Positions 1-56,506 of a DNA stretch of 64,000 bases are shown piece after piece. The stretch comes from Escherichia phage teqhad. The DNA is taken from sequence record NC_054933.1; one strand, 5' to 3'. Every line of letters begins with the position of its first letter. Position 1 is the stretch's first letter. The position numbers and the translations under genes are program-made. The notes under the pieces are model-generated. The model saw only the letters and a program-made list of their open reading frames with translations, was not told where the DNA came from and did no database searches.

Positions 1-817
1 TAACTTTGAAGCCAAAGCCATGCTCACCACAAGCATCATCCCATGTAATGAAGCCTTTATCTTCAAGTGGGTCTAAGATTTTACTCACATAAGTTTCACG
101 ATCATACTTATACGGAATCTCAGTGATATTCATTTGAGTTCGTGAAGTAAACTTGTACGTTCCACGAATTTCATATTGACCGTCAATCTCAACGACTTCA
201 CCACGAAATTCTGGGAATTCTACCTTCGGTTTAGTTACTTTCTTTCCTTGAATAGCTTGCAGTACAGCTTTCTTGACAGAAGAAACACTATGAGGAAGAA
301 TGTAAGTTGCATAACCAGTTGCAATACCGGAAACACCATTAAGAAGAACAGTAGGAATAATAGGCAAATAGAAAGCAGGCGGAATGTGTTCTTTATCTTG
401 ATGTACTGGAGCATATTCAGTATCTTTATATACGTTATAGAAATTTTTACTTACACGAGCAAAAATATAACGACTAGCTGCTGCCTTTTGGACAGTACGA
501 GAACCGAAGTTTCCTTGACCATCTAACAAAGGAAAGTTATTATTCCAAGTATTAGCCATCAAAGCCCCTGCATCTTGTGCAGAGTTTTCACCATGGTGAT
601 ATCCAAGGTCCGCTACACCACCTGCAATAGAAGCAAGTTTGTGAAACTTATCTTTATTTCCTCGTGCCAAATCAAGAGCTCGAGCAATAACAAATCGTTG
701 AACTGGCTTAAATCCATCAATCATATTTGGAATAGCACGATTTTCAACCGTGTACATAGCATAAGCCAATGCTTCATTATCAATGATACTTTTTAAATCG
801 CGATTATTCAGTTGCAT
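1..817 (-). CDS. 52: DNA topoisomerase II medium subunit (gp52), N-terminal part; 3' end lies beyond the window start
   Basis: Minus-strand frame open to the window edge; ATG at 817..815; N-terminus MQLNNRDLKSIIDNEALAYAMY... is GyrA-like. Not in the ORF track because it is truncated. Confidence 0.85.
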   Translation of the reverse strand, partial: MQLNNRDLKSIIDNEALAYAMYTVENRAIPNMIDGFKPVQRFVIARALDLARGNKDKFHKLASIAGGVADLGYHHGENSAQDAGALMANTWNNNFPLLDGQGNFGSRTVQKAAASRYIFARVSKNFYNVYKDTEYAPVHQDKEHIPPAFYLPIIPTVLLNGVSGIATGYATYILPHSVSSVKKAVLQAIQGKKVTKPKVEFPEFRGEVVEIDGQYEIRGTYKFTSRTQMNITEIPYKYDRETYVSKILDPLEDKGFITWDDACGEHGFGFKV

Positions 818-9064: not shown

Positions 9065-9090
9065 ATTATACTCCGGTAATCATAAAGCTA
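9065..9090 (-). promoter_or_regulatory. middle-promoter-like element (MotA-box-like AGCTTTA, 12 bp, TATAAT)
   Basis: Minus strand AGCTTTATGATTACCGGAGTATAAT upstream of gene 39. Confidence 0.4.
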
Positions 9091-16860: not shown

Positions 16861-16917
16861 AACTTTATGCAAAAATGCTTTAAAACTTTCGTGGTATAAT
16901 GAATCTAAGTCCTTCCA

Positions 16918-21504: not shown

Positions 21505-21575
21505 TATTTTTCCTTTCAATTCATGGGTTAGTAGATTAATTATACAATAAATATATAAAGCAATAAGGAGGACAT

Positions 21576-36353: not shown

Positions 36354-36743
36354 TTAACGATTAAAATCAGCCGCAATTGTTTCCGCAACAATTTGTGCAG
36401 CAACAATTAGACGTTCATCTGCATTACCGCAATAATCATCTTCAAGGCGTTCACCGCATGAAGTCATAATAAATTTAGCACCGGCGTTTAGGGATTCTGT
36501 AGTATGTTTGCGCATTAATTCAATCCATTTATTACTTACTTCACGATCGATAGCTTCATAATACGCATGACGAGCAGGTGCAGATTTAATTTTGTTCTGA
36601 ATAACTTCCATTGCATTATCAGAAAGAGACAAAACCCATGCTCGACGAATTTTATTTTGGTTTTGTGGATTTGATTCAGAACGCACGTGTTTTGGCTGAA
36701 TATCTTTTACATCAACAGTATAATTCACAGTAATTTTAGTCAT
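36354..36743 (-). CDS. rpbA: RpbA-like RNA polymerase binding protein (129 aa)
   Basis: 129 aa ORF directly downstream of gene 45. Confidence 0.65.
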
Positions 36744-36944: not shown

Positions 36945-36954
36945 AGTTCCTCCG

Positions 36955-36962
36955 TATAAATA
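36955..36962 (+). promoter_or_regulatory. late promoter TATAAATA (plus strand) upstream of the HNH endonuclease gene
   Basis: Exact TATAAATA 33 nt upstream of the ATG at 36996. Confidence 0.55.
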
Positions 36963-36995
36963 TGTTTATCACTCGCTGTATCAAAAGGATATGTT

Positions 36996-37712
36996 ATGAA
37001 TTATAAACTAATTTATGAAAAGTTAATCTCTAATGCTAAATCTCGAAAACTTGATTGCTATACTGAATCTCATCACATTATACCACGCTGTTTAAATGGC
37101 AGCGATGATGCTTCAAACTTAGTAGAGTTAACACCAGAAGAGCACTATGTAGCTCATCAACTTTTAGTAAAAATTTATCCTTCTGAACCAAAATTAGTCT
37201 ATGCTGCTAACATGATGACAGTTTCCACGAAATACGCTAAACGCAACAATAAAACTTTCGGTTGGATTCGTCGTAAACTCTGGGAAATAGAAAAGAACAA
37301 AGAATTCTCCCAGGAGACACGAAAGAAAATGTCTGATGCAGTAGCTAATAAAGCAAGACTAACTTGTCCTCATTGCGGTAAGTCTGGATTAAGCGGGAAT
37401 ATGAATCGTTGGCATTTTGATAACTGCCCAAATCACCCTAATCCTAAAGTTAGACCACCAATGTCTAAAGAACACAGAAATAATATCTCAAACGGACTTA
37501 AAGCAATCGTTCTTGAAGAAACATCCTGCGAATTCTGCGGAATGATAGGCAAGAAATGCGTTATCGCAGCGCATAGAAATTTCTGCAAGAAAAATCCAAA
37601 TGGACGCAAGAAAACTGAAAAGACTGGTACTTGCGTCCATTGTGGTAAAGTTACCACTTTCGGAAATTTATCAAGATGGCATAATGATAACTGTAAATAT
37701 AAACCTAGCTAA
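36996..37712 (+). mobile_element. free-standing HNH homing endonuclease gene (238 aa) on the opposite strand, with repeated CxxC zinc-ribbon motifs
   Basis: HNH motif ...ESHHIIPRCLNGSDDASNLVELTPEEHYVAHQ...; C-terminal repeats CPHCGKSGLSGNMNRWHFDNC and CVHCGKVTTFGNLSRWHNDNC. Confidence 0.8.
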
Positions 37713-39653: not shown

Positions 39654-39840
39654 TATCTAAAATGTTGAAGTTAAAAGATACAGCCCAGTCAGTGCAGACT
39701 GTAACCTTTTTAATACAATTATCTTCAACCTCTAGTGGTTCAAACCAATATTCAATAATTTCTTTATGCCCAATATCATCTTTTACTTCGCATTCAAAAT
39801 GCTGACTCATCATAACATTTTTAAATTCATCAAAAGTCAT
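39577..39840 (-). CDS. hypothetical protein (87 aa)
   Basis: Track ORF coupled to gene 47. Confidence 0.45.
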   Translation of the reverse strand: MTFDEFKNVMMSQHFECEVKDDIGHKEIIEYWFEPLEVEDNCIKKVTVCTDWAVSFNFNILDNDTPKSLQDMAVSCIKDAYCEVFDI

Positions 39841-40856
39841 TGTGTTGCCTCTACATATAACTGATTTGCATATTGAATAAGTGCTTCACGGTCAGAATCA
39901 GTGATGTCTGGAATTGCATTAATGTATTCTTCCATCAACGTCTGAAGAGATTGAACTTCAACTTCTTCACTGTCATCTGACTCGACAGAGTTATCAATCT
40001 TTGACACAACTCGTAATGAATGCACAACTTTTTCTAGTTCAGATTCGAACTTCGTCAGATTTTTGTCTACTTCAGTTACTATAACACGTACTGATAGATT
40101 TGTAAAATCTTTATAGTCAATTTTTCCTTTAAACGGATAATGAATTCTACGATGCCAGGTAGTATTGTTTGGAATAAATTCCATTCGTTCTGTTTCTGTA
40201 TCAAACATCCAGAACCCACGAGGGTCATTCTCGTCACCTGCTGTTAGTGTCCATGGTGTCCCAATATATCTGACGTTAGCAGCCTCAGAGATAGTATGGA
40301 AGTGACCAGACCACACCTCTTTATAAGTCTTAAGGAAATCAGGTTCAAGACCGTGAGATTTCATTCCTTTATAAAAATAAAATCCATTCAGTTCCCAGTG
40401 ACCAACACAAAAAGAAGCAGATGAAGTTTTGATGTGTTCAAGAATTTCACCAGTATTTTCTTCGCACATCCAAGGAATCAAATCAATCAAACACCCGTCA
40501 AAATCTACTGTAGTAGGCTTATCATACACTTTAACATTATGATATTTAGCCAAAAGCTCAGTAGAGGCATTTGGATGCATTACATTTTTGTAGTGGAGAT
40601 CGTGATTTCCTACAATAGTATGTAATGTGATTCCAGCGTCATCAAGCATTTGAACTATTTCACGGGCAAACTCCATAGTTTTATGCGTGATTGCTTTTCG
40701 CACATCAAAAATATCACCATATTGAATCCATACAGTAATTCCATTTTTCTTAGAATATTCTATCGCTTGCTTAATTCCATCAATTTGAATACCGCGAATC
40801 CACTCATCATCAGCTTTAACGCCTAAATGCCAATCACCCAAGTTTAGTATTTTCAT
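39837..40856 (-). CDS. 47: recombination nuclease subunit gp47 (Mre11/SbcD-like, 339 aa)
   Basis: Phosphoesterase motifs (GDWHLG, GNHD); 339 aa. Confidence 0.9.
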   Translation of the reverse strand: MKILNLGDWHLGVKADDEWIRGIQIDGIKQAIEYSKKNGITVWIQYGDIFDVRKAITHKTMEFAREIVQMLDDAGITLHTIVGNHDLHYKNVMHPNASTELLAKYHNVKVYDKPTTVDFDGCLIDLIPWMCEENTGEILEHIKTSSASFCVGHWELNGFYFYKGMKSHGLEPDFLKTYKEVWSGHFHTISEAANVRYIGTPWTLTAGDENDPRGFWMFDTETERMEFIPNNTTWHRRIHYPFKGKIDYKDFTNLSVRVIVTEVDKNLTKFESELEKVVHSLRVVSKIDNSVESDDSEEVEVQSLQTLMEEYINAIPDITDSDREALIQYANQLYVEATQ

Positions 40857-41457
40857 GGTGTCTTTTCCATCCTAATTTAGCTGCTTTTGAAACCAGTTCT
40901 TTAATTTTTCCTTTTGTCCATTCAGGACCAGGAGGTTCATGACATAACATTTGCTTAACTCCGTTATTATACCATTTTTTACCTTTATTATGTGATGAAG
41001 CTTTAAATTTATTTGACCTTCCTTTTACATAACCTTCTGGAATATAAGGCAAAAAGGCAGATTTTCCTGTTAATGGATCATGTGAATGTATATTTCCTTT
41101 ACAATTATGAGAACCATATAATGGATGATTTTGTCCTTTATTATCTCTTCCAAATGAACCTTTTGGAGCAGCATATGACATATTAAAGAATAATGGATTT
41201 TTAACTGCATCATGCAATCGTTGATAATATAACTCGCATTTAATAGCTTCTTCACGCGTATCAAATTCAGCTAAAATGCATGAATCAAATAAGTGAGGAT
41301 TATCTGAAAGCTCTTTATTATAAATTTTCTTATACTTTTTAGATAAAACTGAACCATGATATCCAGCTAAATGCCTATCTAAAGACGTAGATCCAATATA
41401 AAAAGGAGGAAGTTTATCTCCACTATATATTGTTAAATAAGTTATATATTTTTTCAT
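40834..41457 (-). mobile_element. free-standing GIY-YIG (Seg-like) homing endonuclease gene (207 aa)
   Basis: YLTIYSGDKLPPFYIGST (GIY...YIG spacing), conserved R and E, and ...FDSCILAEF... which parallels I-TevI ...FECSILEE...; basic C-terminal DNA-binding region. Confidence 0.7.
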
Positions 41458-41594
41458 ATATCAAGAACCGTCATTGAAATGCAAAATAAAATTATTGAAA
41501 TAAACCCATCTGGTGTGCTAAAGAACCCAATCCAACATGCTTTAGTGAATAGATAAAATGCAAGAAAAAGTATCACATATCCAAGAAATATCAT
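41454..41594 (-). CDS. small hydrophobic protein (46 aa)
   Basis: Hand-translated MIFLGYVILFLAFYLFTKACWIGFFSTPDGFISIILFCISMTVLDI; ATGA overlap with the endonuclease start. Confidence 0.3.
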   Translation of the reverse strand: MIFLGYVILFLAFYLFTKACWIGFFSTPDGFISIILFCISMTVLDI

Positions 41595-41618
41595 TATATC
41601 AAACTCCGTATAAAGCTA
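41593..41618 (-). promoter_or_regulatory. middle-promoter-like element (AGCTTTA, 12 bp, TATAAT)
   Basis: Minus strand AGCTTTATACGGAGTTTGATATAAT upstream of the GIY-YIG gene. Confidence 0.4.
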
Positions 41619-41635
41619 AAGGGCCGAAGCCCTTT
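41618..41635 (-). terminator. hairpin GGGC-UUCG-GCCC immediately 3' of alpha-gt
   Basis: AAAGGGCCGAAGCCCTTT. Confidence 0.45.
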
Positions 41636-42836
41636 ATTTTGTAATAATGTCAAACTGTTCTTTAAAGCAGAAGCTTGAATCTTGATGCTGATACAAAAAT
41701 TCATATGCTTTTTCTCGCTCACGGTCATAAAGAGCTCGGTCAGATGACAGTTCTTTAATACGCTCAAATGTTGATTCCATATCATTTTCATCAAACCAAA
41801 TGATACCGCTATCATGCGAGGTCAAAGGAGTATTATCAACACGGAATTTTAAATTTTCGCCAGTAGATTTCCAAAATACCGGAATTGTTCCACATGCACC
41901 AAGCTCGAGATGAGTATATTCTAAAGAACGTTGTAGATATTTTTTATCCAACTTACTCAACTGATAACCAAAACCGGATTTACTCATGCGTTCAAGCATT
42001 TCGCTATTTACATAACGATCAAGAATTTGCGTTGGCAAATTAGGAGCAATTTTAATTTGGTCTACTTGATGAAGACGATAATACTCGTATGGAATTCCTT
42101 TTTCTTTAATAGGAATGAACGCTGGAGAACGTTCCAGACCTTCCATAATAGTACTTAGTCCTGCAGGTTTAAGATGTTTTTCATGAAAATCAAACATCTG
42201 ATAAAAACCTTTCCATGTAGTCGTACGACCAATCCATCGGTTGACATTCATGTTAATTTCAGAAACATCTTTCCAGTAGGTTGACCGAACCTTCGCAATA
42301 TCCATAGGAGGCTGAAAGTTATATACGGTCGGCGCTTCTTCAATATCATCAAACAAAGAAACTGTTTCAGGATACCATTCTTTCATCAGAACTTTATTAA
42401 AATCGCCATTATCAGAATGACTAAAAATAACATCAGCTCGACGAACAGTTTCTTCTAATCCCAAATTTCGGCGCAAAGAAAGAGAAGAATGGTCATGTTG
42501 ATAAACTACAACACGAACCGAAGGTTTAATGTTATCAATAATTTTTTTATAGTTATTAATAGTGTCTTCTTCAACTGAAGTAGCAGGAACTGAATTGATA
42601 ATTAGAATATCACAATCATTTACCAGCTTAAGTGTTTTATCGTATTCTTTTGCCAATAAAACCGGAATTGAAAATGATTTATAATCATGTGCGCAATTAC
42701 GAGTAAATGATTTATCTTTAGCATAAACCAAAGTTACTTCATGACCATTTTTAATAAACCAATCACGTTGCTCAAGAGAAAATTTAGTTACACCACAACC
42801 TTCAAGACCTCGAGCCATAAAAATACATACTTTCAT
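41634..42836 (-). CDS. a-gt: DNA alpha-glucosyltransferase (400 aa)
   Basis: 400 aa, MKVCIFMARGLEGCGVTKFSLEQRDWFIKNGHEVTLVYAKDKSF... matches the remembered T4 alpha-gt. Confidence 0.85.
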   Translation of the reverse strand: MKVCIFMARGLEGCGVTKFSLEQRDWFIKNGHEVTLVYAKDKSFTRNCAHDYKSFSIPVLLAKEYDKTLKLVNDCDILIINSVPATSVEEDTINNYKKIIDNIKPSVRVVVYQHDHSSLSLRRNLGLEETVRRADVIFSHSDNGDFNKVLMKEWYPETVSLFDDIEEAPTVYNFQPPMDIAKVRSTYWKDVSEINMNVNRWIGRTTTWKGFYQMFDFHEKHLKPAGLSTIMEGLERSPAFIPIKEKGIPYEYYRLHQVDQIKIAPNLPTQILDRYVNSEMLERMSKSGFGYQLSKLDKKYLQRSLEYTHLELGACGTIPVFWKSTGENLKFRVDNTPLTSHDSGIIWFDENDMESTFERIKELSSDRALYDREREKAYEFLYQHQDSSFCFKEQFDIITK

Positions 42837-42887
42837 TTAATATCCTCATTGTTTTTGGTTTATTTTACCAAAAATTTATAAAGCAAT

Positions 42888-42907
42888 ATAGGAGCCGAAG
42901 CTCCTAT
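42888..42907 (-). other. hairpin GGAGC-UUCG-GCUCC
   Basis: ATAGGAGCCGAAGCTCCTAT upstream of alpha-gt. Confidence 0.4.
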
Positions 42908-56452: not shown

Positions 56453-56482
56453 AATAATCTCAATTAAAAGGGCTTAGAACCA

Positions 56483-56506
56483 TTATACCATCCTTGGTAT
56501 AAAGCG
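56483..56506 (-). promoter_or_regulatory. promoter-like element (CGCTTTA box, 11 bp, TGGTATAAT)
   Basis: Minus strand CGCTTTATACCAAGGATGGTATAATGG. Confidence 0.35.

Follow-up and report, generated by a model that had tools for sequence, protein, structure and literature searches.

A probable Seg-type GIY-YIG homing endonuclease gene at the 47.1/47 junction of Escherichia phage teqhad

Introduction

What kind of gene lies between gene 47.1 and gene 47 of Escherichia phage teqhad, and is it a mobile one? Where recombination boundaries fall among the T-even phages, and which markers are excluded, is influenced by free-standing homing endonucleases, of which to our knowledge only those of T4 and a few more (SegH, Hef) have been studied by experiment. 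In the literature that we searched we found neither a named seg gene at the 47.1/47 junction nor a description of an endonuclease there. Here we analyse this locus in a 64,000-nt stretch of the teqhad genome (NC_054933.1), referred to below as the window. The gene is an ordinary further member of a familiar class, and the kind of system is not new. We note, however, that it tightly abuts a gene of an essential pathway, which encodes the Mre11-like gp47, so that its target, its immunity and any effect on gp47 expression should be easily testable.

Results and Discussion

A reading frame inserted at a fixed site

A preliminary description of this DNA had listed an endonuclease ORF, a 46-aa hydrophobic ORF next to it, overlaps with the neighbours, a GIY-YIG-like motif and a promoter-like site, and all of these are found where it had placed them, the endonuclease ORF having 207 aa and lying on the minus strand (Table 1). 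The 207-aa ORF is not a chance ORF, since it matches phrog_10820 (E 1e-94), has 170 database homologues and is present with an identical protein in many phage records; the copy in the window is intact, its protein is 100% identical in dozens of records, and some records already name the ORF "putative homing endonuclease".

The insertion between α-gt and gene 47 that had been proposed is borne out by its presence or absence at a fixed site among near-identical genomes. Direct comparison of junction sequences at 13 loci gave boundaries that are identical in all loci examined, and that are ambiguous by a 7-nt repeat, ATGAAAA, which opens the endonuclease ORF and gene 47 alike. In T4, 47.1 directly adjoins 47 with nothing between them; the insert takes over the former upstream sequence of gene 47 together with its first 7 nt, and leaves 47.1 and 47 both intact. 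The stop codon of 47.1 overlaps the start of the endonuclease ORF as ATGA, the same overlap that it forms with the start of gene 47 in T4. Although this overlap is as the preliminary description had it, the 46-aa ORF is not part of the element, being the conserved T4 gene 47.1 and hence backbone. At the other end the 23-nt overlap with gene 47 is confirmed: the end of the endonuclease is read in the -1 frame of the first 23 nt of gene 47, and its stop codon lies inside GGTGATTGG, which encodes G-D-W of gp47. An Rfam search of positions 40500-42000 found no group I intron, and gene 47 is uninterrupted, which together indicate that the endonuclease gene is free-standing. A second insertion in this region, of an HNH gene, had also been suggested; the ORF exists (36996-37712, plus strand), but its score against Pfam HNH, 17.3 bits, is below the threshold of 21.4 bits.

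Table 1. Features of the 47.1/47 region in the window (residue numbers refer to the endonuclease)
Feature	Position	Strand	Basis or remark
Gene 47 (SbcD/Mre11-like recombination nuclease subunit)	39837..40856	minus	Pfam Metallophos; gp47 98.8% identical to T4
GGTGATTGGCATTTAGG, gp47 metallophosphoesterase motif I (G-D-W-H-L-G)	40822..40838	minus	gene 47 starts of 20+ loci; Pfam Metallophos
Overlap of endonuclease and gene 47, 23 nt	40834..40856	minus	last 7 codons and TGA stop (...HENTKLG*)
Four silent substitutions, gene 47 codons 3-6 (nt 9, 10, 15, 18)	40839..40848	minus	
Seg-type GIY-YIG homing endonuclease CDS (putative), 207 aa	40834..41457	minus	ATG start
Endonuclease catalytic domain	~residues 1-100		
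NUMOD3-like stretch	~residues 105-126		
Two SegE-like "xNG...P-x-G-[FWY]-x-KG" modules	~residues 123-147 and 160-184		
C-terminal helix	residues 186-203		
Insert, 601 bp, missing in T4 and other empty-site phages	40857..41457	minus	T4 alignment, junctions of 13 loci
Gene 47.1 (46 aa, hydrophobic, predicted membrane protein)	41454..41594	minus	phrog_6693; 97.8% identical to T4 gp47.1
T4 middle promoter P47: MotA box (A)GCTTTA, 12-nt spacer, -10 TATAAT	41593..41617	minus	identical in T4
GGGC-UUCG-GCCC hairpin directly after α-gt stop codon	41617..41636	minus	backbone, identical in T4

The N-terminal domain is of the GIY-YIG type

The 207-aa protein carries T9-I10-Y11, then 8 residues and Y20-I21-G22, followed by R28 and E75. 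Pfam GIY-YIG (PF01541) scores 21.4 bits against it (E 3e-4), just missing the gathering score of 22.6, and sequence searches of the PDB with the single protein or the family profile returned no GIY-YIG chain, so the assignment needs profile and fold evidence; an NCBIfam search gave nothing meaningful. Among 44 family members, 14 match PF01541 (E<0.01) and 20 carry NUMOD3. When the family was aligned to T4 SegA-G with hhalign, the probability was 97.7% (E 2.5e-12) over residues 2-99 and 89 aligned columns. The best-scoring T4 relative of the family HMM is SegE (35 bits), in an alignment that includes the C-terminal modules. A T4 Seg profile run against the 201 ORFs of the window matched the 207-aa ORF (27.6 bits) and no other. 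Residues 1-100 of the AlphaFold model have a pLDDT of 93-98 and a predicted GIY-YIG alpha/beta fold, with a three-stranded sheet flanked by helices; the top three Foldseek matches of the model are the I-TevI catalytic domain (probability 0.99), the further neighbours are other GIY-YIG nucleases, and there is no significant neighbour outside GIY-YIG.

Within the family, Y7, Y11, Y20-I21-G22, E75 and N92 are invariant or nearly so, with at least 90% conservation of Y11, Y20-I21-G22, E75 and N92 in 44 sequences, and a GY-x-GS-x3-SK motif common to T4 SegA-E is conserved, whereas the position of I-TevI Arg27 is not: residue 28, R in the window protein, varies between K, R, N and S. An hhalign comparison with I-TevI alone aligns the NUMOD3-like segment only (probability 9.7%) and is unusable for mapping catalytic residues. 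The Seg-like GIY-YIG reading put forward in the preliminary description, for which it had proposed a check by HHpred or Pfam, accordingly stands on the SegA-G alignment and the I-TevI and other GIY-YIG fold neighbours, while Pfam itself stays under its gathering score. On these profiles and this model, the N-terminal domain is a Seg-type GIY-YIG nuclease.

Many RefSeq records, and the PHROG description of phrog_10820, name the product "HNH endonuclease". We give this identity practically no credence, since Pfam reports no HNH family for the 207-aa protein at E up to 1, its profile and fold matches are all to GIY-YIG nucleases, and the GIY...YIG...E...N motif set is conserved in the family. The label is wrong for this family, for which GIY-YIG (Seg-like) homing endonuclease is the proper name.

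Relation to characterised endonucleases

T4 SegE, as the work of Kadyrov et al. 1997 is summarised in PMC2988022, is a free-standing GIY-YIG homing endonuclease encoded between inh and uvsW, with uvsW as its target. Our protein resembles SegE in a catalytic domain of Seg type, in which YIG is followed by the GY-x-GS motif, in its two C-terminal "xNG...P-x-G-[FW]-x-KG" modules, and in the placement of its gene directly upstream of, and in the same orientation as, a known or presumed target. The two modules are presumably DNA-binding beta-hairpins, joined to the nuclease domain through a short NUMOD3-like linker. It differs in that the similarity is low and seen only with profiles, in that site and neighbour are gene 47 rather than uvsW, in that the ORF overlaps both neighbours and lacks an intergenic promoter of its own, and in its NUMOD3-like stretch.

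SegA-D, SegF and SegG belong to the same catalytic-domain family (covered by the same 97.7% hhalign match), and their genes likewise lie between conserved genes, are sporadic among T-even phages, exploit host-gene promoters and overlap neighbouring ORFs; segF and gene 56 of T4, for example, share 11 nt, and an overlap with the ORF upstream is described for five endonuclease ORFs of T4 (PMC2988022). None of these genes, however, is at the 47.1/47 junction, and their C-terminal domains are richer in NUMOD3 or helix-turn-helix.

In structure, the predicted catalytic domain comes closest to I-TevI, the GIY-YIG enzyme of the td intron (PDB 1MK0/1LN0). The two share a beta-strand segment (FECSILEEI in I-TevI, FDSCILAEF here), a similar spacing of the catalytic Glu and Asn (E75/N90 in I-TevI, E75/N92 here) and a modular plan, predicted in our case, in which a linker joins the nuclease to a DNA-binding domain and a NUMOD3-type element is present. 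In contrast to I-TevI, our gene is not intron-encoded, its protein has no zinc finger or C-terminal helix-turn-helix, the sequence match is not significant and the Arg27 position is not conserved.

Sporadic distribution and selection

Comparison of the 47/α-gt junction in related phages, which the preliminary description had recommended, separates about 67 Tequatrovirus records with the insert junction from about 438 with the empty one, so that the insert is present in about 13%. The ORF is therefore missing from most relatives at the same fixed site, the sporadic presence and absence that marks a homing endonuclease gene. Two outcomes named beforehand as contrary to the endonuclease reading, a lack of any GIY-YIG signal and an ORF present in all relatives, are the reverse of what we find. 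The endonuclease is absent from T4, yet common enough to study, and it occurs at the same site in several genera. Directly upstream of gene 47, at least five further Straboviridae lineages (Gelderlandvirus, Jiaodavirus, Winklervirus, Biquartavirus and one that is QL01-like) have orthologues of 48-80% identity; gp47 identity in these lineages is 40-90%. A paralogue with a different C-terminal domain lies upstream of gene 39 instead. The C-termini of the orthologues end alike in [HNY]-E-N..., an ending that corresponds to the -1-frame reading of ATGAAAAT and occurs in about 20 of the top 28 homologue clusters. Between orthologues of different genera dN/dS is 0.10-0.25, which by this codon-based measure places the protein under purifying selection. 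Occupation of the same site in other lineages, together with these dN/dS values, argues that the gene encodes a free-standing, site-specific homing endonuclease on which selection still acts. Overall, we think it likely, with good confidence, that the ORF is a free-standing Seg-type homing endonuclease gene with SegE as its closest T4 relative, its homing mechanism being assigned by analogy.

Two other accounts of why the gene persists bear on these same data. The gene might be a relic of homing, a past invader now inactive or decaying in this lineage and retained since its deletion would disturb the start and translation of gene 47. Indeed, the ATG of gene 47 is embedded in the endonuclease ORF, so that only a precise deletion would be tolerated, and there are empty sites with insert-type codons at the gene 47 start, as expected after loss of an insert. 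Damaged copies can also be found: those of ESh36 and ZCEC15 are each split into two tblastn pieces, that of KNP5 lacks residues 60-134, that of ERS-1 has three frameshifts, and the KPV15 orthologue is annotated as fragments. The damaged copies come mostly from UNVERIFIED or indel-rich records, however, and as evidence of decay ERS-1 and KNP5 carry little weight, both being UNVERIFIED and ERS-1 showing 19 gap openings in 2.9 kb. Moreover, the intact window copy with its many identical counterparts, the conservation of the catalytic-motif residues over 44 diverse members and the low dN/dS between genera all run against decay, and we regard a relic as unlikely.

Alternatively, the nuclease could be kept mainly for the benefit of the phage, instead of being purely selfish: it might interfere with relatives that infect the same cell, promote recombination or amplification of the genes around it, or have a role tied to gp46/47 recombination. 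Competitive or anti-defence benefits of phage homing endonucleases have been published, as outlined for SegB in PMC13096335 and for an intron endonuclease in PMC11620839; in addition, the location next to the recombination nuclease genes 46 and 47 is the same in different genera, and purifying selection on the protein would fit. A generally useful gene should nevertheless be commoner than one that is carried by so small a fraction of Tequatrovirus records and that T4 does without. We find this account unlikely too, and slightly less probable than that of a relic, although it is compatible with a homing mechanism and does not exclude homing.

A possible route of homing and a candidate target

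If the gene is a homing endonuclease gene, as we favour, its spread may follow the course known from SegE, SegF, SegG and I-TevI. By this analogy, the endonuclease would be made in the middle period of a mixed infection, would bind a conserved sequence at the 5' end of gene 47 of an insert-free phage infecting the same cell and would make a double-strand break near its binding site; recombinational repair would then use the donor as template for the endonuclease gene and for markers beside it, spreading the gene and locally excluding the markers of the recipient. The donor itself would be protected by the insertion, which replaces the sequence upstream of the gene 47 ATG, and perhaps additionally by four linked silent changes in codons 3-6. 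Gene 47, whose start abuts the insert, is the presumed target gene. We note that those free-standing endonucleases of T4 that have been characterised often cleave at a distance of hundreds of bp from the gene encoding them (PMC2988022), so the site of this enzyme could lie elsewhere.

The start of gene 47 offers two candidate elements. Codons 3-6 read ATA CTA AAC TTG with the insert as against ATT TTA AAT TTA in the T4 type, and apart from these four substitutions no difference between insert-bearing and T4-type empty-site alleles is fixed anywhere in the 1020 nt of the gene. The rest of gene 47 is a mosaic produced by recombination, in which no site beyond nt 18 is linked to the insert. The stretch of codons 3-6 is a candidate self-immunity or cleavage-site region. 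The adjacent motif I DNA, GGTGATTGGCATTTAGG, is nearly invariant across genera in the gene 47 starts of 20+ loci, and is a candidate for the sequence that the DNA-binding domain recognises.

The recoding of codons 3-6 does not hold as a general signature of self-immunity and can serve as a hypothesis only: in Salmonella phage SEA1 (Gelderlandvirus), which has the insert, the gene 47 start is the same as in insert-free relatives, and a gene-wide clustering test is marginal (p ~0.05). The recoding holds in Tequatrovirus, and a similar pattern is seen in the QL01-like lineage. Three empty-site phages, SHFML-26, BCPEco001 and YwIITB1, have the insert-type codons; ERS-1 combines the insert with T4-type codons, and in KNP5 the insert is internally deleted.

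It is conceivable, and we offer it tentatively, that this lineage has specialised on the first ~35 nt of gene 47, such that the SegE-like modules read the near-invariant DNA for the Mre11/SbcD-type motif I (GDWHLG), the nuclease domain cuts slightly upstream in codons 3-6 and the recoding constitutes a resistance allele. On such a reading, the resistance allele occurs with the insert and, rarely, alone in empty-site phages. Were this specialisation real, invasion, immunity and loss could all be followed from genome sequences in one compact natural system, located in the very gene whose nuclease product resects the breaks that homing requires.

Promoter and expression context

The AGCTTTA-N12-TATAAT site upstream of the endonuclease, described beforehand as resembling a middle promoter, is a real promoter, namely the T4 middle promoter P47, whose start has been mapped to position 36576 of T4 (PMC2988021, Table 1); it does not belong to the element, which only exploits this piece of the backbone. 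The insert lies between P47 and gene 47, downstream of the promoter. In the window the inferred P47 start is at ~41586, 8 nt inside 47.1, and P47 transcripts would therefore be unable to translate 47.1, so that coupling through the ATGA overlap would be possible only on read-through transcripts from upstream.

Middle or late promoters are typical of T4 free-standing endonucleases (PMC2988022). There is no late promoter TATAAATA on the coding strand in or near the ORF, and a sigma-70 scan found sites no more numerous than in shuffles. Hairpins that sequester the RBS have been described for some T4 endonuclease genes; none was found at either start codon here, where the RNA-structure z-scores are +0.93 and +0.68. 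The window contains 5 matches to GCTTTA-N11-13-TATAAT where 0.15 would be expected, and the hairpin that follows α-gt is annotated as a terminator in related records.

Results

The 207-aa ORF upstream of gene 47 appears, from profile comparisons and a structural model, to be a free-standing, SegE-like GIY-YIG homing endonuclease gene, which supports, with corrections, what the preliminary description had proposed. The features reported there are present: the TIY-x8-YIG pattern, R28, E75, a basic C-terminus and an upstream AGCTTTA-N12-TATAAT site. The Pfam GIY-YIG match (E 3e-4) scores 21.4 bits, slightly short of the 22.6-bit threshold, and a search of the protein against NCBIfam gave no match. 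Profile-profile comparison of the family with T4 SegA-G, however, gave a probability of 97.7% (E 2.5e-12, residues 2-99). SegE scored best with the family HMM (35 bits), its C-terminal region being aligned too; like the 207-aa protein it carries two C-terminal 'xNG…P-x-G-[FWY]-x-KG' modules, and SegA-E share with the family a 'GY-x-GS' motif after YIG. In an alignment of 44 homologues the N-terminal domain of ~110 residues is strongly conserved, with Y7, T9, Y11, Y20-I21-G22-S23, Y33, G35, S39-K40, R68, E75 and N92 invariant or nearly so, whereas the family varies at the position of I-TevI Arg27. An AlphaFold model computed from this alignment is confident over the catalytic domain (pLDDT 93-98), and its top three PDB matches (Foldseek) are the I-TevI catalytic domain, with Slx1 next. 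The Seg profile match and I-TevI as nearest fold bear out the GIY-YIG domain. A search of a large protein database returned 170 homologues, many with the NUMOD3 repeats typical of GIY-YIG homing endonucleases.

The protein family is named 'HNH endonuclease' in RefSeq (NC_054911, NC_054916, NC_054919, NC_054920, NC_055723 and others) and likewise in phrog_10820, the PHROGs match of the 207-aa protein (E 1e-94); phrog_314, also matched, is labelled 'homing endonuclease'. Pfam reports no HNH family and the RefSeq and PHROG name is therefore wrong, fold and profile pointing to GIY-YIG. Some GenBank records already read 'putative homing endonuclease'. A search limited to one literature library found no paper naming or characterising the 47.1/47 endonuclease gene.

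From a-gt to gene 46, T4-type genes stand in T4 order on the minus strand of the window. Alignment with T4 (NC_000866) places a 601-bp insertion exactly at the junction at which 47.1 and gene 47 overlap directly (ATGA) in T4; since the insert and gene 47 both open with ATGAAAA, the boundary has an ambiguity of 7 nt. The gene was placed by insertion between P47 plus 47.1 and gene 47. As had been claimed, the 46-aa ORF's stop and the endonuclease start overlap by ATGA, and the endonuclease stop lies 23 nt into gene 47.

Features of the endonuclease locus and related sites in the window
Feature	Position	Strand	Remarks
a-gt	41634-42836	-	Pfam AGT, E 4e-237
46-aa ORF (= 47.1)	41454-41594	-	ORF
P47 start	~41586		
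207-aa ORF (endonuclease)	40834-41457	-	ORF
gene 47	39837-40856	-	Metallophos; 98.8% identity to T4 gp47
46.2, 46.1, 46	next after gene 47	-	gene order
238-aa ORF	36996-37712	+	region 36945-37712; strand opposite to neighbours
Late-promoter consensus TATAAATA	36955-36962	+	34 nt before 238-aa ORF's ATG
Gap without mobB	42837-42903		67 nt
Other MotA-box/-10 matches	9065-9088, 16877-16900, 21539-21561, 56482-56505		exact

Upstream of the insert, the a-gt stop, a GGGC-UUCG-GCCC hairpin, the promoter-like site and 47.1 (in T4 annotated as a predicted membrane protein) are identical to T4 except for three point differences, all within 47.1. The micro-ORF, hairpin and promoter therefore belong to the phage backbone and are not parts of the element. 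The 'coupled micro-ORF' accordingly stands as an overlap and not as a component of the insertion, and the middle-promoter-like site is indeed a promoter, the mapped T4 middle promoter P47, though not the insert's own. P47 transcription starts at T4 coordinate 36576 (Hinton review, PMC2988021, Table 1), within 47.1 and 8 nt past the A of its start codon. Transcripts from P47 therefore cannot translate 47.1, and the endonuclease ORF would be the first complete reading frame on them; upstream of it stands the sequence that in T4 serves gene 47. The window contains five copies of the pattern GCTTTA-N11-13-TATAAT, where 0.15 would be expected by chance, and the four copies other than P47 are probably further T4-type middle promoters. 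No significant RNA structure was found at the endonuclease and gene 47 start codons, no late promoter near the 207-aa ORF, and no excess of sigma-70-like sites in a scan.

Discussion

Within Tequatrovirus the endonuclease gene occurs sporadically; in several other Straboviridae genera it is found at the same site. Only 64 of the 515 phage records that match the flanks by megablast carry the insert, junction-specific queries returned 438 empty versus 67 insert junctions (~13% insert), and an independent tblastn search found copies of at least 90% identity in 67 records. In the comparison of the 47/alpha-gt junction among relatives that had been proposed as a check, the insert is present or absent at one fixed junction. 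Gene 47 polymorphisms are freely shuffled between insert-bearing and insert-free phages, as expected of the highly recombinogenic T-even genomes. Orthologues 48-80% identical lie directly upstream of gene 47 in Salmonella phage SEA1 (Gelderlandvirus) and Aeromonas phage avDM2 (Biquartavirus), both with the 23-nt overlap, in Klebsiella phage KPV15 (Jiaodavirus), in Serratia phage LC53 (Winklervirus) and in a QL01-like coliphage, there in place of 47.1. Of the 28 closest protein clusters, about 20 share a C-terminus of [H/N/Y]-E-N followed by a few residues, which is gene 47's ATGAAAAT read in the -1 frame, so these clusters probably also abut gene 47. In Yersinia phage TG1 a paralogue lies upstream of topoisomerase gene 39 and differs in its C-terminal domain, which combines NUMOD3 with a helix-turn-helix-like tail; target thus changes with DNA-binding domain. 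Orthologue dN/dS is 0.10-0.25, though with dS saturated, and the protein is under selection. No intron was found at the locus.

We note two variants among relatives. In the QL01-like genus, the endonuclease of an IMG/VR contig (L025, 1897-2514) replaces 47.1 rather than following it, and a close relative (L023) has 47.1 without the endonuclease; the boundary between endonuclease gene and gene 47 is the conserved one, the upstream boundary the variable one. In the KPV15 locus (L036, 1498-3110) the annotation breaks the orthologue into two or three short ORFs and gives gene 47 a late start, and the match to gene 47 is spread over more than one frame, reflecting either real decay or sequencing frameshifts.

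The putative enzyme is not yet characterised, yet it belongs to a well-known kind, and the main value of the locus is as a tidy experimental system, along with the correction of annotation. It is plausible, by analogy with the plan of I-TevI, that the DNA-binding modules would recognise GGTGATTGGCATTTAGG in gene 47, a nearly invariant sequence coding for the gp47 metallophosphoesterase motif GDWHLG, and that the nuclease domain would cleave the DNA shortly upstream of it. Those free-standing T4 enzymes that have been characterised are able to cleave hundreds of bp away from their own genes (PMC2988022).

Gene 47 begins ATG AAA ATA CTA AAC TTG in 3/3 insert-bearing Tequatrovirus loci examined and ATG AAA ATT TTA AAT TTA in 7/7 T4-type empty loci. 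Across the 1020-nt gene no fixed difference other than these four, all synonymous, separates the two sets of loci compared; a permutation test over the whole gene gives p ~0.05 for a cluster of this kind. Protection against self-cleavage is one hypothesis for the four changes; another is simple hitch-hiking with the insert, all of them being no more than 18 nt from it. Similar recoding of codons 3-6 occurs in the QL01-like lineage, and none such in Gelderlandvirus. Junction searches showed a strong linkage with a few exceptions: in BCPEco001, YwIITB1 and SHFML-26 an empty site goes with insert-type codons, and ERS-1, a low-quality record in which the ORF is multiply frameshifted, combines the insert with T4-type codons. 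Two of the three empty-site phages, SHFML-26 (a Shigella phage; locus L043, 3311-3712) and BCPEco001 (locus L041, 3314-3715), carry an 855-bp (284-aa) CDS between 46.1 and 46, labelled 'homing endonuclease' in the former and 'hypothetical protein' in the latter; this second mobile element, 1.4 kb off, may have influenced gene conversion across the region.

Lastly, no ORF in the 64-kb window other than the 207-aa ORF matches the T4 SegA-G profile, so segA and segF homologues are lacking; mobB, which in T4 lies between a-gt and a-gt.2, is also absent, and the homing endonuclease set therefore differs from that of T4. The 238-aa ORF has an HNH-like motif (SHHIIPRCLNGSDD…NLVELTPEEH; Pfam HNH 17.3 bits, below the threshold of 21.4) and takes up the 760 nt that separate 45.2 from gene 46, a gap of only 55 nt in T4, its end overlapping the gene 46 3' end by 8 nt; a T4 late-promoter consensus precedes it.
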